NCBI GenBank assembly: GCA_035221665.1
Contig: CM069151.1
Coordinates: 20,708,001-20,772,000 of the forward strand
Length of the DNA stretch: 64,000 bases
Direction of reading: 5' to 3'
Origin: Okamejei kenojei
Lineage: Eukaryota
The translations under genes were made by a program, and so were the position numbers. The notes beneath the pieces were generated by a model. The model was given only the letters and a program-made list of their open reading frames with translations, did not search any database and was not told the origin of the DNA. Positions 2,761 to 63,942 of this stretch are shown here, in pieces (the stretch's first letter is position 1; each line of letters opens with the position of its first letter).

Positions 2761-3589
2761 GGCTAGTCCTTCAGCACAGTCTTGACCACAAAATGGTGTC
2801 GCTTCCTCCCCCTGACTGGAGCAACTGGGTCTTGGCCCACCTTGACGAGGATCAGGTGGGCCAATCTAGTATCAACTGATTGGACACAGCTGTTACTTAT
2901 GTGGCTGCAGCCTCAGCTCAATGGAGCTGAGGTTTGGCTTCTCCTGGCCCGTCTGTGGATCAGAGTGGAATACGAGGGAGAGGGAGCTATCACAAAGCTA
3001 TCAGAAACACACCAAATTAGAAGATGGAAAGAAATACCAAGAGATGGCTGAATGAGCGACAGAAGTAATTGGTTATGAATAAAAGCGTGGAAAGATGAAG
3101 AGTATTAGAAGAGTTCCAGAATTCAGACCCAACGTCTTTGCAGGGAACGAAGAGGGGAAGACACACACATACAATAGGTGAAGTTGATAAAGCACTGGTG
3201 AAAATTGCAGAGATAACATTGAGAAAGGCAAAACAGAATTGGATAATTATGAAAATGGTTTAAAAAGCAGGAATCTGATTGACATCAATGAGAATAGAGC
3301 GACAAAACAAGATATCATAAAAGAAATGGATCATATCACAAAGTCCATTGTCATTTGACATCTTTCCCAACACCACTTTCTCATGCAATTCTTATTTCCC
3401 TTGTCTATCCATAGGCTTTGATGTACAACCATTGAAGGGCTCATTCCTGGCCTCAGTTCCACGTGTCCAAGCTTATTCTGAAGCAGACTCTCAAATTCCA
3501 GACTCTCAGACCTCTTAGTGTTCAACACAGAATGCAGAATATTAGGAAACTTCTATGAAATATATAATCTAAAAGCAGATAATATATCC

Positions 3590-3690
3590 AGAAAATAGAC
3601 ACAAAATGCTGGAGTAACTCAGCGGGCCAGGCAGCATCTCTGGAGAGAAGGAATGGTTGACATTTCGGGTTGAGACCCTTCTTCACACTC
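3590..3690 (-). mobile_element. Penelope-derived short repeat with degenerate hammerhead core
   Basis: atagacacaaaatgctggagtaactcagcgggccaggcagcatctctggagagaaggaatggttgacatttcgggttgagacccttcttca; flanked by atatatccagaaa / atatctccagaaa. Confidence 0.8.
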
Positions 3691-11686: not shown

Positions 11687-11932
11687 TGACTACATCCTTG
11701 GCGATCGCTTCGCCCAACACCTCCGCTCTGTTCGCATTAACCAACCTGATCTCCCAGTGGCTTAGCACTTCAACTCCCCCTCCCATTCCGAATCTGACCT
11801 TTCTGTCCTGGGCCTCCTCCATCCCCACCGCAAATTGGAGGAGCAGCACCTCATATTTGGCTTGGGTAGTTTACACCCCAGCAGTATGAACATTGACTTC
11901 TCCAATTTCAGGTAACCCTTGCTTTCTCCCCC
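11687..11932 (+). mobile_element. Penelope-like element, C-terminal GIY-YIG endonuclease remnant
   Basis: Translates LGDRFAQHLRSVRINQPDLPVA*HFNSPSHSESDLSVLGLLH...RKLEEQHLIFGLGSLHP..MNIDFSNFR, with the RFxEH, VAxHF, LExxxI and GxN motifs of Penelope GIY-YIG C-termini; in-frame stop and deletions. Confidence 0.85.
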
Positions 11933-11934
11933 AC

Positions 11935-12670
11935 TTTAGGGGGAGAGGAACACCCCTGTCCCCCGTCTCCATCGATGGTGTGGATGTGCAGTTTACCAGG
12001 GAGTATAAAAACCTGGGAGTGTACCTGGAGAGTAAACTGGAGCCAGGAGCGCTGACGCTCTGTACAAGAAGGGACAGAGCCACCTGTACTTTTTGAGAAG
12101 GTTCAGCTCCTTCAACGTCTGCAGTGAGATTCTGCAGATGTTCTACCAATCGGTGGTAGCTAATACCATCTTCTTCGCTGCCGTGTGCTAGGGCAGCAGG
12201 GCGAAGACTGCGGACGGCCATAGGATCAGCAAAATCATCGGGAAGGCTGGCTCCGTTCTGGGGGTGGAGTTGGATCCTTGGGAAGTGGTCTTGGAGGGGA
12301 GGATGCTCCTTAAACCGTGGAGCATCCTGGACAATACAGCTCACCCCCTCCATGGCACACTGGTCAACCTGAGGAGTACCTTCAGCAACAGACTGGTTCC
12401 AGGACAGAACGCCACACGAGATCCTTCTTCCCTGTAGCTATCAAACTTTACAACTCCTCCCCCTTCTGTCGTGGGGTAGACTAAGATGGAGACTGACCCC
12501 CCCCCCCCCCCCCACACCTCCTCAATCTTTGCACATCCCCAAAGCCTTACCACTGGTCACTTTATTTTCATGTTTCATGTATTTTGTGTTTTTTATGATT
12601 GCTGGCAAATTAATTTCCCTCCTGGGATACATAAAGTTCTATTGTATCATATCGTATTGTATCATACCAT
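11935..12670 (+). mobile_element. 5'-truncated Rex1/Babar-like LINE with 3' tail, adjoining the Penelope fragment
   Basis: PLSPVSIDGVDVQFTREYKNLGVYLESKL...YKKGQSHLYFLRRFSSFNVCSEILQMFYQSVVANTIFFAAVC*...HPLH...RSFFPVAIKLYNSS; ends in ataaagtt plus an (atcgt)n-like tail. Confidence 0.85.
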
Positions 12671-12939: not shown

Positions 12940-13060
12940 ATACCTCTCACTCCCACTTCCCCTGAATCTCAGTCTGAAGAAGGGTCTCGACCCAAAACGT
13001 CCTTTTCTCCGGAAATGCTGCCTGACACACTGAGTTACTCCAGCTATTTGTGTCAGTCTT
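12940..13060 (+). mobile_element. Penelope-derived short repeat; hammerhead core with GAAA changed to AAAA
   Basis: ctcagtctgaagaagggtctcgacccaaaacgtcc...gatgctgcctgac-like...ctgagttactccagc. Confidence 0.8.
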
Positions 13061-13789
13061 TAACTCAAACCAAGTTGTTTTGAAATAGCGGGTTTGAAAG
13101 TAAAGAAAACAATTTAATGGTTGTAGCAGCAATGATATTAAAGGCAAATTTAACAGATGAATTAATCCCACATATCAAGATCCCACATATTGTAAAAATA
13201 CCTAATATTCCATAATCTTTGATAAACCGAAGTGAATTCATTGTTCCTGAAGGAAAGCAACGTGCCAGAATATTGCTGTGTACCGGCTAATGTGATCAGC
13301 CATGAGGGCTTTCTAGCTGTCAGGATTGATATTGCATTGCTTGTCATAATGCTTGAGTGCATTTTCATGTGCTTGCCTGTTTCTCAGGTTCTGTCACTGT
13401 AGATGTTCTTTTTTTTTTTTTGGTTTGTTAATTATTTATAATGTGACTGAGGAGCCCTGAAAAGGTTGTTTGAGTCAGCATGCCTTTTGTGATGGCGGGC
13501 TTGGTCAATGAGAGATCATGAATTTGTTCATTTTTCTCAGCAATATAATAGAATAATGGACAAGTGCTGGGCATGACACGTCACATACCTAATGAGTAGA
13601 TGTCACATCCCTGCCGAACAGTGTTGTTAGCAGCCTGACTTGTGTACATACAGCATTGTCGAGAGTTTGACTTCACATTCAATTCAGATTTGTTTTCTAT
13701 ATCCCCAACTGCAGTTGCAACAAAGAATCACCATCCCATTAACATTAACTTTAGTTGTCCCTGTGCATTTGCATTTTACTGGATATATT

Positions 13790-16387: not shown

Positions 16388-16515
16388 AGTGTAGGAAGGA
16401 ACTGCAGGTGCTGGTTTAAACTGAAGATAGACACAAAAAGCTGGAATAACTCAGCGGGACAGGCAGCATCTCTGGAGAGAAAGAATGGGTGATGTTTCGG
16501 GTCGAAACCTTCAGA
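16388..16515 (-). mobile_element. Penelope-derived short repeat
   Basis: gtgtaggaaggaactgcaggtgctggtttaaactgaagatagacacaaaaagctggaataactcagcgggacaggcagcatctctggagag...gtgatgtttcgggtcgaaacc. Confidence 0.8.
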
Positions 16516-19290: not shown

Positions 19291-20015
19291 ATTGATGGGA
19301 TACTTTCCATCATTGGCCAAGGCAGGGAATATAAGAGTAGGAAGAGTAATGGTTAGGCCATAAGCCAGAATAATGCACATCATTCTGGTAGCCAAATTGC
19401 AGGAAGATCACAATCACATAGAAGGAGGTGCAGAGGAGGTTCACCAAGATATAACCTACAATGAAGCATTTCTATATCATGATTGGCAGATTTATTAGGC
19501 TGAGTTTATCTTCCTTGGTGCACAGAAGATTGTATACAAAATTATGGGCAATAATACGATATAAAGAGGAGGGCATTTTTCCCTCTTGGAGAGGAGTCTA
19601 AAATTGGAGGGCATAAATTTTTGCTATGAGGTAAGAGGTTTACAGGGGCTCTGAAAAAGAATGTTTGCACCTAGAGTGTGGTTTTATTGGGAAAGCACTG
19701 CCTCAGTGGGTGGTGAAGGTAGAGATTCACACAACATTGAAGAAGTATCTGGACCACAACTTCAATCAGCGAGATATAGAAGGCTGCAGACCAAAGGCTG
19801 GTAAGAAGAACTTGTAAAGACAGGTGTGTACGAAGGAGCTGCAGATGCTGGTTTAAACCAAAGATAGATACAAAAAGCTGGAGTAACTCAGCGGGACAGG
19901 CAGCAACTCTGGAGAGAAGGAATGGGTGAGGTTTCGGGTCACAGGTGTTGAGCAGTCAACATGGACATGTTGTGCCAATTGGATCTTTTCTACGCTGCAT
20001 GACTTTACAACTCTG
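19290..20015 (+). mobile_element. Decayed CR1 LINE 3' part with a nested Penelope-derived repeat at about 19826-19940
   Basis: ggtgcagaggaggttcaccaagat (VQRRFTR-like), ggagggcataaattt, CR1 tail; the nested unit is flanked by acaggtgt on both sides. Confidence 0.7.
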
Positions 20016-27361: not shown

Positions 27362-27683
27362 GTGTAGGAAGGAACTGCAGATGCTGGTTTACACTGAAGA
27401 TAGACACAAAATGCTGGAGTAGCTCAGCGGGCCCTGGATCTATCCAACATCTCTGGATAGAAGGAATGGGTGACATTTCGGGTTGAGACCCTTCTTCAGA
27501 CTGAGAGTCAGGGGAGCAGACACAGAGATAAGAAAGGGTGACGTGTGTGAAAACGAGACATCAAAAGAGATGAAGGTCAAGGAAAATGTAGAATAGATCT
27601 TTGTTAGCTAGGAATAGGTGACAACAAAGCTATCCAGAGATGCTGCCTGTCCCACTGAGTTACTCCAGCATTTTGTGTCTATC
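27362..27683 (-). mobile_element. Penelope-derived element with an inverted terminal segment
   Basis: Left gatagacacaaaatgctggagtagctcagcggg is mirrored at the right by ctgagttactccagcattttgtgtctatc; hammerhead-like core on the minus strand at about 27472-27499; flanks cacacaatgtaaaag / cacacaaggtaaagg. Confidence 0.85.
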
Positions 27684-27942
27684 ACACAAGGTAAAGGTTG
27701 TTTTTCATATTTGCAAGTGATATTAATAAAGTTTGCTTTTGCTGAAGAGATTGTGCTACTTTGACACTTTATCAACCATTATGCAACAGGTAGCCCATTG
27801 ATTAACATTATTTGGATCTTGCGGCTAAGAAGTTGGCCATATTCTGTGAAAACTAAATTTAAATGACCTACACTACAAGTACATTAACTAGGAACTTCAT
27901 TAGTGATCACAGATTAACACTCAGCTCAATTATACATTTGCT

Positions 27943-28445
27943 TTGTGTAATGAAGAACTGCAGGTGCTGGTATAAACCGAAGACAGGCGCAAAAAGCATG
28001 AGTAACACAATGGTCAGGCAGCATCCCTGGAGAGAAGGATTAGGTGACGTTTCAGGTTGAAGCCCTTCTGCAGACCAAGAGTCAGGGGAAAGGGGAACGA
28101 GAGATATAGACCATACTTAGGAGAAATGAATAGAAGATATGCAAAAAGCAACGATAATCAAGGGGCACACAATAGGCCAACGCAGGCCATGGGATAGGTG
28201 GCAACAAGTATACAGAGGAAGTCAACAGGATGACAGTAAAATTAGTAATATTATTAGGTGTCAGAAGTTATGGGGAGAAGGCAGTAGAATGGGGTTAGGA
28301 GGGAGAGATAGATCAGCCATGATTGAATGGCAGAGTAGACTTGATGGGCCGAATGACCTAATTCTACTCCTATTCCTTATAACCCTATGACTAGGGTGGG
28401 GCGGGATGGAGAGAGAGGGGGTTGCAAGGGTTATTGGAAGTTTGC
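27943..28445 (-). mobile_element. Penelope 3' region with a nested CR1 tail at about 28256-28385
   Basis: Same terminal unit; distal end ggggttgcaagggttattggaag is the reverse complement of the sequence just after the GIY-YIG stop at 11905-11930. Confidence 0.75.
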
Positions 28446-35650: not shown

Positions 35651-35946
35651 TTTTAAAGAGCCCGCATTTCCTATTACCGGCACATTGTAATAGGATCCTT
35701 GCATGTTATTTCTAAATACCGCTCGACCAAGCAAGAAACCCCTACGTCCCAGCTAGCAAATTCCCAAACATTGTAAAATTGTGACACAAGTGCTGGAGCA
35801 ACTTGGTAGGTCAGGCAGCATCTCTGGAGAGCATGGATAGATGACATTTCAGATTTGTACCCTTTTCCAGACTCCTTTTGTGCATCACTTGATATGGTAG
35901 TGAGCAAAACAGAGCAAATGGTTAGTGAGTTTACTCTCATTTCTCA

Positions 35947-37129: not shown

Positions 37130-37228
37130 CTTCAGTCTGAAGAAGGGTCTCGACCCGAATCGTCACCTATTCCTTCGCTCCATAGATGCTGCCTCACCCG
37201 CTGAGTTTCTCCTGCATTTTTGTCCAAC
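37130..37228 (+). mobile_element. Penelope-derived repeat; hammerhead core with GAAAC changed to GAATC
   Basis: cagtctgaagaagggtctcgacccgaatcgtcacctattccttcgctccatagatgctgcctcacccgctgag. Confidence 0.8.
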
Positions 37229-37440
37229 TGCTTCAGACAATAACGCTGCACTCTACTGGACAAAGCTTAAGACTGATTCAAGTCAAAAGGCACAACAATT
37301 ATCATTCCCATAAGGTCCCAGAGTCAAAAACAAAAAAATATCATCTTATATCTGTCTAATAGCTACTTGATTTACTTTTCTGACATGTTAGATTTAATTT
37401 ATTATATTTGATCAGTGCCCCAAGGTGAATTACAAAAGGG

Positions 37441-37872
37441 TAAAGCCCGTCCCACTTGCGTGTCCTTGGCACGGTAAGTACTCGCCCTCGTGGTTGTGTA
37501 GCGGCACGACGGTCCCACGAAGGTCGCGTGCGATTTCATGCGCCCGCACAGCCGTCTGGAGCAAGTGACGTTTTTTGAAGATGGACACAAAATGCGGGAG
37601 TAACTCAGCGGGACCAGCAGCATCTCTGGAGAGAATGAATGGGTGATGTTTCGTGTCGAGACGCTTCTTCAGGCTGAAAGAAGGGTCTTGACCCGAAACG
37701 TCACTCATTGAAAAATTTCGGAGCCCCGTGCGATGTCACGCACAACTGCATACCCCTCCGCGCTTCTCAGTGGGACCGGCCTCGCGCAGCCATACGATGT
37801 CCGTGCACCTCAGTGCGACGGCGAGGTCGCGTAATTTGTATGCCAAGGACACGTAAGTGGGACCGGCCCTTA
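37441..37872. mobile_element. MITE of the GGGCC(T/G)GTCCCAC family with a nested Penelope-derived insert at about 37577-37710
   Basis: Left taaagcccgtcccacttgcgtgtccttggca versus right-end reverse complement taagggccggtcccacttacgtgtccttggca; internal tttcggagccccg.gcgatgtc and gtgggaccggcc shared with 18615-18690. Confidence 0.85.
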
Positions 37873-38419: not shown

Positions 38420-38580
38420 CCTTTTCCAATTTTCCCCCCCCTCCCCCCCCCCCACCCCGATTCTCAGTCTGAAGAATGGTCTCGACCCGAAACGTCACCT
38501 ATTCATTTTCTCCTGCTGTCTGACCCAGCTTTTTGTGACTACCTTCGGCTCAAACCAGCATCTGCAGTTCCTTCCTATAC
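38420..38580 (+). mobile_element. Penelope-derived repeat with near-intact hammerhead core at 38469-38496
   Basis: ctcagtctgaagaatggtctcgacccgaaacgtcacct...aaaccagcatctgcagttccttcctatac. Confidence 0.8.
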
Positions 38581-38795: not shown

Positions 38796-38955
38796 TGTCT
38801 GAAGGGTCTTGACCCAAAAAGAGTCTGAAGAAGGGCCTCGACCCAAAACGTCACCCATTCCTTCTCTCCAGAGATGCTGCCTGTCCTGCTGAGTTACTCC
38901 AGCATTTTGTGTCTACCATTCGATTTAAACTAGCATCTGAAGTTCTTTCCTACAG
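38796..38955 (+). mobile_element. Penelope-derived repeat with a partial tandem copy of the hammerhead segment
   Basis: gtctgaagggtcttgacccaaaaagagtctgaagaagggcctcgacccaaaacgtcaccc; flanks cagatatccttacc / cagatacccttacc. Confidence 0.8.
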
Positions 38956-47253: not shown

Positions 47254-47411
47254 ACCATCAACTTTCCTTGTGGAGTCATGAAAGAACACTCCTGATCAAT
47301 TTAGCTGTGCAAGAAATGGGAGGTTCAGAACAAAGAAGCTTTCTTCATCCTTTCAGGTTCCTATTACCTACAGCCAATGATTAGTGAAGTATCTGCAATA
47401 TTCAGTATTTA

Positions 47412-47510
47412 GCAGTCTGAAGAAGGGTCTCGACCCGAAACGTCGCCTATCTCCTTCGCTCCTTAGATGCTGCTGCACCCGCTGAGTTTCTCCAGCTTTT
47501 TGTGTACCTT
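47412..47510 (+). mobile_element. Penelope-derived repeat carrying an intact hammerhead core
   Basis: gcagtctgaagaagggtctcgacccgaaacgtcgcctatctccttcgctccttagatgctgctgcacccgctgagtttctccagc; flanked by ttcagtatt on both sides. Confidence 0.85.
47417..47444 (+). ncRNA. Minimal type-I hammerhead ribozyme motif, Penelope-associated
   Basis: CUGAAGA, an extra A, stem II GGGU-CUCG-ACCC, GAAA, palindromic ACGU in place of stem III, and a GUC cleavage triplet. Stem I is only about 2 bp by eye and activity is unproven. Confidence 0.65.
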
Positions 47511-49059
47511 CAGTATTAAGCAAACTTGGGTCAGGTGTGCAGCCAGCAAGCCCACTCTTGGTCTGGGCATTAATCTTTGTCACCAAGAATGTGCTTTGAA
47601 CACTTCCCACCCTCAAGGTCTTCCCAGGAGCATTATCCAATGTGGAGTTTTGATTCATGAGCAGAGGAAGGCAAGAAAGTAATATTGTATATTTCATGAA
47701 AAATAGGCATGTACTTTGACAATACAGAACAGTTGAAACGCATAAATGAATACATAATATTACAGGTAATTTCTATTGGCAAAGTGCAAGAAATTGCTCT
47801 GATTATTTTCCTATTAAAATTGAATGCATTGTTGATGGCTTGTTGTACACTGTCGCAGAATTGTTTACATATCAAATGTTCAGTCTCTCTCTTTTCTTCA
47901 CAGTTTTCTTTTCATCCTCAGTACAACTACACCTCTTTCAGGAAAGCACTATTCCTATCCCTCACTTTCAAAGTACCCAAAGTAAGTTTTCATGACCTTA
48001 CTGCAACTTACACTCATACCTCAATATCAGGCAGTAACCAGAAATGGCAAGACCCTGATATAGGTGTACTTGATTTTTCTTTTGTTCTGCTCCTTATTTC
48101 TGTATAACCATACTAGTTTCAATTTTGCAAATGAAAACATAACGTCATCCCAGTTGCACCAAAAGGATGATGTTCCTTTATTATATCAGCCATGTTTCCT
48201 CCTAGTAACCTTGTTAACCTTGTTAACTGCTCATAGGCACAATTGGCCAATTGCATTATCATTTTGTCTGGTTTTTTAAAAAGTGGTTAATCGGACCTCT
48301 CGTCCGCTTATAAAGTAAAATGCAAATCTTTTGTCGTTCTGAGAAATAAGCCTGCTGTCTACAAATTCACCTTTGCGGCTGTTGCTAATAAAGAAGGAAA
48401 ACTAATGAGGTCAGAGAATTCACACACAGTAGGTGACATTTTTGGCAAGCAGAATTATTTATTAATACATGAAATTCAAACATGTTTTTCTGGCTTCATA
48501 GCATTGCCCTCAACAAAAGACAACCAAAATGCACAAAGCCCACAGAGATTAACGGTATACAATGTGTAAATTAATATAAAAGATTATATATTCTGCAGAG
48601 AAGAATCAACCTTCGGCTTCCAAAAAGATCTTCAGTGGATCACAGAAATTAATTTGCCACTAAAAAGAACGTCACAGTCCATGTCTTTGAATTTGATTAT
48701 TTGACAATAGTGTTTTATGCAAGTTATATTTCAAAGCAAACACTTTTACAACCTTCCCAAAATCCTTCAAACGGGGCAATAATGTAAAGTTCTGGAAATA
48801 TGGCAACCATAATTTCTGCAATGTTTATTTGATGTCTGTAGCTGCATTAAATACAAGAAATTGCAGCTCAAGCATTGTCCACTTCCTTAAGTAAAAATGA
48901 TTTTTAACGGGACAATAAAAGTAAGGAGACTAGAAAATAGAGCTAAACATTGCCCCACAAGACAGAATCGGCAAATCACAAAGCTACTCAACTGGGAGAG
49001 ATGGGGAAGGGGGGGGGGGGTGGAAAGCTAAACCTCTAGATCAGATTACATATTGAGAT

Positions 49060-49330
49060 CTTGTATTGGACACAAGACTAGAATTCTATGATGCTGTGCT
49101 CCCAACAACTCTACTGTACGCCCTGCATGTGGAGAAGGCAGCTATTCACCTGCTTCATCATATTACGCAGAATACCAATGCACAATTGCTGAAGCAAGTC
49201 GACTCTCCAAGTAATCCACTCAATGCTCTGGGTACAAAAGAAAACTCCCTGCACCACCCCTACCCACTCCCTGGGATGTAGCCATTCAGAGATCCTTCGA
49301 GTCCTCTGAAGGCCTGTTTGCATGAGTTGA
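49060..49330 (+). mobile_element. Highly decayed RTE-clade LINE fragment
   Basis: TRLEFYDAVLPTTLLYA resembles the RTE TKxxVYxAVVxxxLLYG motif; downstream SRLSK resembles xRLPKQ. Confidence 0.55.
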
Positions 49331-49859
49331 GATCAGCATCCAGTTCCATTATGGCTAATAAGCCATTTCACTCAGGCTGTGATCCCTTGTAGGATCCTTC
49401 GAGTGATGGGTCCTCTCAAAGCTTGACAACCAGTCCTTTGTACATTCTGCAAATGAAACAAAATGTACATTGTTTTAGAACAAAACATGAGTTTGGTTTC
49501 CTGCTATAATTTTTTTTTTTTTTTTTAAACAATCCTGTGTGAGCCAGCTATTTATTTTGCGATACTCTTAGCTGGACATCATGAAAATGGGTTCAAATCC
49601 TCTTCCAAAACCCGACCACAGAAATCTATGCCAACATTCCAATTCAATAATTTGGGATGCCACATGTGTTAGCTTTATTCAGATATGCAACATAATTTAG
49701 CTTAGTTTATTGTCACGTGTATCGAGGTACAGTGAAAAGCATTTGTTGCTAACCAGTCAGTGGCTAGAAAATAGATGATTACAATCGAGCGCTGTACACT
49801 GTTAGGAAATTAATTTGGGAGGAAACCTGCTGTAAAAATAATGCACACGCCGTTCCTAT

Positions 49860-50784: not shown

Positions 50785-51290
50785 AACCAAAACAAAGTGC
50801 TGGAGAGGCAGCATCTCTGGAAAACACGGATAGGTGGTGTTTTAGGTAGGTATCCTTCTTTAGACTATAGCAGAGGGAGCGGGGAAAAGAGAGCTGGAAG
50901 CAGGACAAAGCCTAGCAAGTGGTAGGTGGGTACAGGCAGGGCGGTGGGGGTTCATAGGCAGATTGCTGGACAAAGGATAGAGATGAAAAGACAAATCCTT
51001 TGCTCCCACTTTTTATCTTTTCATTTCTGGCCTTTGTCCAACTATCGACCAATCAACCCCCCCCCCCCCCCCCCCCCCCCTCCTCTCCTGTACTCACCCG
51101 ACACTTACCGGGCTTTGTCCTGCGCTCACCTTTCTTTATCCCCCACCACCACCATCAGTCTGAAGAAGGGCAACCAGCTGAAACGTCACTTATCCATGTT
51201 CTCCAGAGACACTGTCTGACCGACTGAATTACTGCAGCACTTTGTGACTTTTTATTTTAAACCAGCATCTGCAGCTCCTTATATTTCCAT
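50785..51290. mobile_element. Penelope-derived element made of two inverted 3' segments
   Basis: A minus-strand unit at 50790-50995 faces a plus-strand unit at 51010-51285 (cagtctgaagaagggcaaccagctgaaacgtcac); flanked by atcttattcca on both sides. Confidence 0.75.
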
Positions 51291-60077: not shown

Positions 60078-60716
60078 TATCCTCATTTGCTCAACCCTTC
60101 CTGCAATGCAACTACATCATTCACTCCAACCAGTCCCCGACAGCAAGTCCCACAGTCTCAGCACACTTTGTGTAAGGGAGCTTCAAATTCTGCACTCTAT
60201 TTTTTGTATTATCTTAATCTAATGCTCTCTAATTATCTTCTTAAGCAAGCAGAAATAAACCCTATACCCATCACCAAATCAAAACCTCCCATTAAAAAAA
60301 ATATTCAATAACCCACAGCCTTTTCAAGAGAGGCATGGCCTGTTCATCTTTTTCTTGTAAATCTCTCATTTCCAATTTCATCCTTGCAAATCCTTTTCAC
60401 CCTCCACAGTTCTTCAATATTCTTTTCATAAATATTTCAAGACAAACACTGCATAATATTCCATCGATGGTCTAGCAAAGATTCCACACAGATTAACCAT
60501 AGATCCTCACATTTCAATACTACCCATCTATCAAAAACACACCAAGTGCCTGGTTTGTTTTTGCTTTAAAATTGATTTCCCAACCCAAGGAAGTGAATTG
60601 GCACTTGTAATCCAAGGTCTATTTATTGTTCTGTTACATATAGACTTGTATCTTCCCATTAATTTGGCATTCCCATTCTTAATACCAAAAATCTACAAAC
60701 TTGCATTACCACTGTG

Positions 60717-60878
60717 GAAGGTAGACAAAAATGCTAGAGAAACTCAGCGGGTTAGGCAGCATCTATGGAGGGAAATGGGCCTATTTCCTTCACTCCATAG
60801 ATGCTGCCTCACCCGCTGAGTTTCTTCAGCATTTTCGTCTACCTTCGATTTTTCTGGCATCTGCAGTTCCTTCTTAAA
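60717..60878. mobile_element. Palindromic Penelope-derived insertion with arms of about 65 bp
   Basis: gaaggtagacaaaaatgctagagaaactcagcggg..aggcagcatctatggag mirrored by ctccatagatgctgcctcacccgctgagtttcttcagcattttcgtctaccttc; flanks ttaccactgtggaa / ttaccattgtggaa. Confidence 0.85.
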
Positions 60879-61689
60879 CTTACCATTGTGGAATGTCATT
60901 TGCCAAATATTTGCCCATTCTGCAGATTAATTACTTTGTTAATTTGTCTTCTTCGGCATTCCAGCCCATCTTCAAAATAAATATGCTTGTATTGACAAAT
61001 TTTGAAATTTAAATTGAGGATCAATTAAATATCTTATTACGTGGTGCAGCAGCCTCAAGGGTAGCTGTTTTAATTCTGCTTCTGTTTCTTATATTCTGCA
61101 CATAACAGTTTAGATGATCACCTGATTGAATATCGCATTCCATCTTCCAGCACGACCCTGAACATGCAGCTGAATATGTTTATTCCCCGCACATCCCTTT
61201 ATTTACAGCCACCCACACCATTCTTTTGAAGCTTGACAGAACCTTGAGACACAGCACCTCATATCTCAGTTGGCTCCTTGCAGCTTTCTAAGTATTGCAC
61301 AATTTCAGATCACGGCTCTATTCTCAGGCAGCAAATGGTAATAAAGATTCTGCCGTATTTTGATCGGCACTGTAATCTTTACTTGTTGCATTACAATTTT
61401 TTTTTTTTATTTAATATAAACTTTACACCCCTTTGGCCATTTGAAATTACATATTTCTCTGCTGACCCCTTTTGTTTTTGCTGCTTTTCCCGTCCCCAAC
61501 CATAAACCAAATTTCCCTGTTCTGCGCCTCCTGCTACATTTGACATTTTCCAGCTTTCTAGTTTGAGGTTGCAGTGGTGAAAGAACAAAGTAAAGCCCTA
61601 CCAACTTGGTCCTTACAAATATACATTGGGAATTGGCTTAATCCAGTTCTTAAAATATCAGAATAAAACAATATTAAGGTAAATTGTAT

Positions 61690-63075: not shown

Positions 63076-63784
63076 GAGGGTAATGTGTCAACCATGTACC
63101 AATGAGTTTATCTATCTTTGTACCACTGTGTGAAATACAGCCATTAACTTAAAAGCCCACTACAACTAGCCCCCAAGAGTATCAACAGCAGCAAAACATG
63201 TTCTACCACATTCTGCAAACTCATGGCTCACCTTGTTAACCATTTGAAAGGAGTCCTATTTATTTACTGAGCCTTGTAGCAGGTCTTGCTAAAAGCAGTA
63301 CGAAGTATCATACAAAATGATAAGATTACAATGCGGATCTGCGTGCAAGTTGTATCTGCCTGCTGCAACCAATTTCAGACCCAATAGAACTGATCAATAC
63401 TTCGCCGTGTTGCGCAACCTTTCATGAATGGGGCAGGCCACCTAAACTGTTTACAAGCAATGCTCCCTGATAGTAGAGTCCAAGGATGAATCCTCCATAA
63501 CTATTTACAGGCAGAAAACTGAAGTGACCTTCTCTGGCATTTCTCGCCATCATCATGATGACAGGAAACAGCCAAGTAGGCTGAATACAACAAGGGGTTT
63601 GGGTATCAATTTCAGGTGACAAGAAACAGCATTGGAAAATATAAACGGAAATTGGTGGAAACATTCAGCAGGTTAAGTATTTACAGCAGATGCATTTGTA
63701 TTTAGTTTTTGTGCCTCAAACAAACTTGTTCTGGTGAAGTTATAACCCTGGCAATCATCCAGCAGAACTATATTCTACATAGTC

Positions 63785-63942
63785 AAGATAGGCAAAAAAT
63801 GCCGGAGTAACTCAGCGGGTCAGTAGTATTTCTGGAGAAAACCAATAGGTGATGTTTCAAGGCGAGACCCTTCTTCAGACCAAGAGTAATGACCGAGACT
63901 ATCTTCAGTGTAAACCAGCATCTACAGTTCCTTCCTACACAT
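63785..63942. mobile_element. Penelope-derived repeat with an inverted terminal piece
   Basis: aaaatgccggagtaactcagcgggtc...ggtgatgtttcaaggcgagacccttcttcagac, then ctatcttcagtgtaaaccagcatctacagttccttcctacac; flanks ttctacatagtcaa / ttctacagtcaa. Confidence 0.8.

Follow-up and report, generated by a model that had tools for sequence, protein, structure and literature searches.

Minimal hammerhead repeats in Okamejei kenojei, assigned by motif and context to a Neptune-type Penelope-like element as its pseudo-LTR and leader

A young insertion and its relatives in a 64-kb window

The 64-kb stretch of Okamejei kenojei DNA analysed here (the window) carries at 47415–47508 a young insertion of the youngest subfamily of a dispersed repeat, flanked by target-site duplications (Table 1). 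Microhomology at its 5' end allows 47413 as the first base instead, and its 3' end is the first of two 3' end sites of the family. Copies of this subfamily are closely similar, with at most 2 of 60 positions differing from one reference copy in 46 of 74 copies. We confirmed that the 28-nt hammerhead motif reported by a first-pass annotation of this DNA is intact at 47417–47444 on the forward strand.

The interval 48439–49448 on the opposite strand is likely the last exon of a neighbouring host gene. Contigs of related organisms cover it, stop at the minus-strand acceptor AG at 49448 and continue elsewhere, and an AATAAA polyadenylation signal lies near 48460; the source runs of these contigs are guessed to be RNA, and ends, strand and level are not readable from them. 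This likely exon is made up of a short coding tail together with a UTR of 1 kb that is conserved among related organisms. If it is indeed the last exon, the 47415–47508 copy lies outside the intron of this gene, ~920 bp beyond its end, in antisense orientation.

With a profile derived from 12 window copies plus seven element leaders we recovered 25 family fragments in the window, and all 16 positions previously listed for the repeat hold family copies. Most are broken: the generic core descriptor was matched by three (38469, 47417 and 51160), and only the 47417 copy keeps stem II together with a full core. The miRNA-type Rfam hits in the window proved to be inverted repeat pairs.

Table 1. Coordinates of the insertion, its motif and related features in the window
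Feature	Position	Strand	Remark
Family copy	3589..3689	-	core broken
GIY-YIG endonuclease remnant of the element	11712..11915	+	broken C-terminal remnant, one internal stop
Family copy	12969..13069	+	G12 changed; upstream UTR remnant from ~12886
Family copy with tail (16490 copy)	16389..16513	-	5' core half mostly missing
Family copy with tail (19927 copy)	19826..19940	-	begins inside stem II; most of core 5' half missing
Family copy with tail and upstream UTR	27362..27504	-	palindrome changed
Diverged family copy with tail and upstream UTR	27945..28077	-	
Diverged family copy	35782..35873	-	
Family copy	37132..37229	+	A15.1 changed
Head-to-head inverted pair of family copies	37575..37709	both	
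Family copy	38465..38580	+	intact core; first stem II pair broken
Family copy with tail	38821..38955	+	G12 changed
Left target-site duplication	47401..47414	+	14 bp, one mismatch to right copy
Solo pseudo-LTR/leader insertion	47415..47508	+	youngest subfamily, 94 bp
Predicted competing hairpin	47415..47468	+	buries core, breaks stem II
Stem I, two pairs only	47415..47446	+	47415-47416 with 47445-47446
Minimal hammerhead motif	47417..47444	+	core 47417-47423; extra A 47424; GAAA 47437-47440
Motif parts			stem II 47425-47428 with 47433-47436; palindrome ACGT 47440-47443; predicted cleavage after 47444
Right target-site duplication	47509..47522	+	14 bp
Likely last exon of neighbouring host gene	48439..49448	-	context, outside the repeat
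Diverged family copy	50792..50866	-	
Family copy	51155..51281	+	intact core; stem II lost
Inverted pair without hammerhead core	60716..60879	both	gave spurious Rfam miRNA hit
Minus-strand copy with short inverted partner	63783..63940	both	

The motif comprises the CUGANGA and GAAA boxes and an NUH site, with all of these positions invariant as the majority base across subfamilies. The earlier description of a minimal type-I hammerhead with an extra base after A9 and an ACGU palindrome was borne out, and the features correspond to the descriptor in PMC4209133. An Rfam scan of the window returned no hammerhead family at E up to 10, so the call rests on the core descriptor.

The core boxes, the unpaired base between positions 9 and 10.1 and the G10.1-C11.1 pair agree with the minimal type-I hammerheads of metazoan Penelope-like elements (PLEs) reported in PMC4209133, as do the palindromic 15.2–16.2 positions, the pseudo-LTR location, the mostly solo occurrence and some opposite-strand pairs. 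Stem II, with 4 bp, is a listed difference from the hammerheads of that study; stem I, with 2 bp, is shorter than the 4–5 bp of Schistosoma and equal to the 2 bp reported for D. virilis (PMC4209133).

Placement within a Penelope-like element

Judged by motif and context, the repeat is the minimal hammerhead of an endonuclease-bearing PLE. Searching with the endonuclease (EN) remnant of the window gave 100,310 first-look candidates, which should not be read as a count of copies. We retrieved 29 EN-end loci; in 24 of these the core lies on the same strand, 88–117 nt past the EN stop, and a diverged core was seen by eye in two further loci. The suggestion that the motif lies downstream of, and on the same strand as, the GIY-YIG reading frame thus holds at these other loci. 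The link originally drawn within the window, between 11905–11930 and 28415–28445, proved weak (10 identical bases shared). There, the EN remnant ending at 11915 is separated from the 12974 copy by the remnant of an unrelated retroelement, and a link between the second UTR type of the window and an EN of its own was not established, with a single BLAST row. The intervening remnant, at 11940–12640, belongs to a different retroelement (Pfam PF09004, E 6e-8) and interrupts the Penelope remnant just past its stop codon.

At the other end of the element, inspection by eye of 30 loci revealed a full core before the element body in 20, a partial core in four and none in six, and the ORF start ATG lies at +162 in all three loci displayed. 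Since the core lies both downstream of the EN stop and upstream of the ORF start, the repeat is, on this sequence evidence, the pseudo-LTR and 5' leader of a Neptune-type PLE, in line with the Penelope origin originally proposed.

The coding part is seen in locus L061, where a 401-aa frame contains reverse transcriptase (RT) motifs, a C-x4-C-x2-C linker and, at its C-terminal end, a GIY-YIG domain, the latter matched by Pfam with an E-value of 1.8e-4 and 22.2 bits, slightly below the 22.6 cut-off. The linker occurs between RT and EN also in L063 and L070. Pfam returned no RT hit for the element frame, and RT motifs were identified by eye in longer loci. Among 150 scored RT matches the longest open frame was 778 aa, and no intact full-length ORF was found. 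A CX2-5CxxC linker is described as a Neptune/Nematis feature (PMC8557442); the Neptune-type assignment rests on this linker and the domain layout, which are shared with Nematis (PMC8557442). Typical features of EN+ PLEs are also present, namely pseudo-LTRs at both ends, an optional 30–40 nt tail and an inverted 5' partner.

The order of RT and C-terminal GIY-YIG with the cysteine linker, the partial tandems, the inverted 5' partner, the optional tail and the target duplications all match descriptions of the Neptune clade and EN+ PLEs (PMC8557442, PMC3846280). The skate family differs in that solo leader stubs outnumber ORF-bearing pieces many-fold. It was previously suggested that these stubs form an independent SINE-like family. 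This was not supported: the sequence belongs to the terminal repeat and leader of the element itself. Over its entire length a stub is collinear with a full element's leader, and by this measure it does not qualify as a SINE with an independent head and its own lineage.

Several further observations concern the region upstream of the core. The UTR of the youngest subfamily (L105, L106, L109, L110), ~235 nt long, looks recombinant, its start matching the short UTR type and its end the long type of window 27500–28250. All UTR types, such as those at window 27500–27530 (-) and in L039, end in a pyrimidine tract and CAG one base before stem I, resembling a splice acceptor. In D. virilis an intron is reported to end at helix I (PMC4209133). 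Donor-like AG/GT sites are present both at the EN stop and at the start of the ORF. Among the 49 upstream types displayed, spliced (intron-less) genomic copies in which the EN end is joined to the core did not appear as a recurrent class. A PDB sequence search returned nothing relevant.

Abundance, copy ends and origin of the stubs

The very high copy number suggested by the first-pass annotation was upheld by genome-wide counts. The 28-mer occurs in 48,215 exact copies in the 2.76-Gb genome, compared with none for the reversed pattern, and a generic minimal hammerhead descriptor that does not require stems matched 143,051 cores against 205 in the control. In a 1.04-Mb sample (104 ten-kb stretches at round positions on contigs 1–26), the profile gave 448 hits and none in the reversed sequence. 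Such differences exclude chance. The family makes up 4.1% of the sampled sequence, which extrapolates to ~1.2 million fragments genome-wide, ~750,000 of them spanning the motif; the 59 intact cores of the sample extrapolate to ~156,000, near the genome count. For comparison, ~9,000 cores are reported for Xenopus and ~4,000 for the coelacanth (PMC4209133), with descriptors that differ from ours, in which stems were not required.

The ends of the copies are sharply placed. In the young subfamily, 3' ends measured from the first core base fall at +90 to +95 in 42 of 74 copies, at +126 to +132 in 23 and elsewhere in nine, with none running into the element body. The two sites, ~35 nt apart, bound the 30–40 nt tail. 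This arrangement is the same as that of the Poseidon element PAc of Anolis carolinensis, in which two internal RT start sites bound the tail and coincide with genomic 3' ends (PMC11167929). In the skate element both end sites lie in the untranslated leader, unlike in PAc; the PAc ORF starts inside stem II, whereas the skate ATG lies 162 nt downstream of the core, and the skate element also differs from PAc in having the Neptune/Nematis cysteine linker (PMC11167929).

At the 5' side, many copies begin 3 nt upstream of the core, and 5' ends range between about −6 and +2. The 242 core-anchored hits of the sample comprised 113 with unique flanks, 74 with an inverted partner, 49 continuing into upstream UTR and six with a direct partner, so that 193 do not continue upstream. 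The corresponding numbers for 71 exact-match copies, after one duplicate locus was dropped, were 18, 13, 38 and two; ordinary 5' truncation therefore also contributes, given the 38 that continue upstream. Inverted partner arms likewise start within −5 to +2 of the core in 38 of 87 cases, and six start at +16. Target duplications of 9–22 bp flank 16 of 141 copies, as compared with 2 of 141 in the control. In L217 and L008, compound insertions contain a short direct core repeat, a rare layout permitting a same-strand dimer.

Neither end is defined by ribozyme cleavage. Within ±2 of the cleavage site we found 7 of 448 5' starts (1.4 per base versus 3.8 and 2.0 on either side) and no 3' ends among the 448, although very short pieces are harder to detect; cleavage-defined ends were not found in inverted partner arms either. 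One element (L064) starts near the cleavage site, and this is not general. Since copies neither start nor end there, the templates were evidently not cut. PAc is similar in that its main template is uncleaved RNA and its ribozyme is silent without protein (PMC11167929).

Considering these data together, we regard it as probable that the repeat is the hammerhead-bearing terminal repeat and leader of a Neptune-type PLE whose stubs arise as by-products of target-primed reverse transcription on uncut RNA, the ribozyme being idle once inserted. The element protein would start reverse transcription inside the RNA at two 3' sites; internal starts have been shown in vitro for the anole element (PMC11167929). 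From the site near the transcript 5' end, synthesis would run off the RNA after ~95 or 130 nt and yield stubs, and the RNA end would be a capped start ~3 nt before the core. In its most specific form, this reading would make the roughly one million stubs complete short cDNAs, extending from an internal start to the capped RNA 5' end in the manner of strong-stop products. The stubs would then document in vivo that PLEs use capped, uncleaved RNA for transposition, and a conserved competing hairpin would keep the hammerhead inactive until the element protein binds. We put this form forward tentatively, at somewhat less than an even chance.

The base preceding the copies bears on this point. A G precedes AGT in 13 of 50 unique-flank copies, compared with 1 of 74 UTR-continuing ones (p 2.5e-5, pooled), and 13 of 15 non-consensus bases before AGT are G. 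The excess resembles a copied mRNA cap, by analogy with full-length L1 insertions, in which an extra G marks cap copying (PMC11702581); terminal addition by RT would leave the same sign and would also imply an RNA end. The C at −4 is kept in 35 of 50 unique-flank AGT copies, which therefore start upstream of the proposed site. Before GT starts, the G excess is not significant (10 of 24, p 0.12). The G lies inside the target duplication in two duplication-bearing cases, and closer inspection showed an inverted junction in one of the 13 copies with G. The consulted part of PMC11167929 contains no description of a fixed 5' end with an extra G for PAc.

The same ends could be produced if the stubs were ordinary 5'-truncated 3' ends of long transcripts, with the pile-up before the core marking RT stalling or drop-off and not an RNA start, an explanation that we consider rather unlikely, although drop-off at the C-rich tract is a serious competitor. 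Besides that tract, candidate causes would be a protein occupying the splice-site-like tract or cDNA folding back on itself. All upstream UTR types do end in a pyrimidine or C-rich tract with CAG, and the scatter of 5' ends from about −6 to +2, the continuation upstream of 49 of 242 sample and 38 of 71 exact copies, and the inverted partners in 74 of 242 fit it as well. Against drop-off stand the specificity of the −4 G excess to copies that stop there and the 5' ends of the elements themselves: in at least 16 of 30, the element likewise starts at the core or immediately before it, or has an upstream pseudo-LTR that ends at this point.

It appears improbable that the stubs are a distinct non-autonomous family of SINE or retrozyme type, self-transcribed and amplified through ribozyme-processed (circular) RNA. 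The units are short, high-copy and duplication-flanked, and Penelope-derived retrozymes have been described in vertebrates; the non-LTR retrozymes of that report (bioRxiv 10.64898/2026.07.22.740005) are, like the skate stubs, non-coding and pseudo-LTR-derived and carry a type-I hammerhead. However, retrozymes are tandem units with a hammerhead each, whereas the skate copies are dispersed monomers or head-to-head pairs, with direct tandem partners in only 6 of 242. For every stub subfamily a full element with a matching leader exists, and the units span the cleavage site instead of being bounded by it.

Fold and activity of the inserted hammerheads

Stem II has 4 bp including the G10.1-C11.1 pair, is 84–89% paired in the sample and shows a one-sided U-A/U-G change. 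The two pairs of stem I are formed in 86% and 93% of copies, and the next two in 15% and 16%, in agreement with the weak stem of about 2 bp noticed earlier. Longer versions of stem I through other registers or bulges were considered and yielded only an A-U pair after a bulge (87 of 181). In the proposed check of stem I/II covariation, 24 chosen copies showed one-sided changes and no two-sided ones.

Folding programs, which ignore tertiary contacts and proteins, predict −4.2 kcal/mol for the hammerhead fold of the 47417 copy versus −11.9 to −14.3 kcal/mol for the competing hairpin, whose energy is itself unremarkable against shuffles (z −0.29). The predicted probability of stem II does not exceed 0.2 in any of 24 copies (one mis-oriented row left out), the consensus fold of the alignment pairs the core with downstream pyrimidines, and the 4-bp duplex of the palindrome (stem III) is predicted at only −3.1 kcal/mol. 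In alignment A1 (columns 18–21 and 38–41), every subfamily allows pairing between the four bases past the cleavage site and the stem II 5' strand, with one-sided changes that keep the pairing, possibly a built-in off switch.

Inserted copies show no sign of selection on the core. Catalytic G12 is kept in 254 of 356 copies, other CpG G's in 257 of 348, 256 of 369 and 305 of 388, and the remaining core bases are conserved at 0.93 versus 0.92 in invariant flank blocks. Because G12 is lost at the CpG rate and the core is as conserved as these flanks, inserted copies are not under selection. Between subfamilies, the majority core stays the same whereas neighbouring positions vary, a pattern consistent with selection acting in source elements. 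The hammerhead would be kept by selection in source elements only, and its escape there from the competing hairpin would require a dimer partner or the protein of the element.

We assessed strand bias in 402 kb from 81 loci of myosin, kinesin and ion-channel genes, inside their exons or next to them, leaving out five overlapping and 23 single-exon or doubtful loci; HECT and RhoGEF searches contributed no loci. All copies split into 103 sense and 79 antisense, and those with intact core and stem II into 11 and 7. Intact cores, for which a test of strand bias had been proposed, were not depleted on the sense strand in genes (14 sense, 10 antisense), in a small set with a 95% interval for the sense share of 0.37–0.78. 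Strong purging of sense copies was thus not seen, and a mild effect remains compatible with these numbers.

Activity in the dispersed copies is therefore unlikely, given the 2-bp stem I, a hammerhead fold far from the predicted minimum, the decay of G12 at the CpG rate, ends that do not pile up at the cleavage site and the lack of sense depletion. Published assays point the same way: in vitro, a minimal monomer showed no activity and dimers were weak (PMC4209133), eight of nine frog dimers were inactive and one active (bioRxiv 10.64898/2026.07.22.740005), and the anole ribozyme was active only with protein and dispensable for insertion (PMC11167929).

The earlier idea that intact intronic copies cut nascent host transcripts found no support in the sense counts or the neutral core decay, and the 47417 copy is itself antisense to and downstream of the neighbouring gene, if the likely last exon is correctly placed. 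We consider it very improbable that cleavage of host pre-mRNA by intact intronic sense copies is frequent enough to matter, even with ~143,000 intact cores, a same-strand neighbour within 500 bp in 37 of 281 core-spanning copies and a related anole ribozyme that cleaves with its protein present (PMC11167929). The balanced sense counts, the neutral loss of G12, the short stem I and the weak or absent activity of published monomers and dimers all stand against it.

In the literature outside repeat databases and subscription journals, we found no account of this PLE stub family from skates or sharks. Both the class of element and its hammerhead motif are already known; what this genome adds is scale (~4% of the sample) and sharp copy ends. 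The neutral behaviour of ~143,000 intact cores argues against a burden on host transcripts. The role of the hammerhead in PLEs is called unclear in the consulted literature, and the sharp copy ends give it a direct test, since the positions of the two RT start sites and of the RNA start can be predicted from young copies within a few bases. If the stubs are indeed complete cDNAs reaching a capped RNA end, that start would leave just three bases for stem I, and the massive numbers of solo minimal hammerheads in metazoan genomes would be explained without ribozyme activity.
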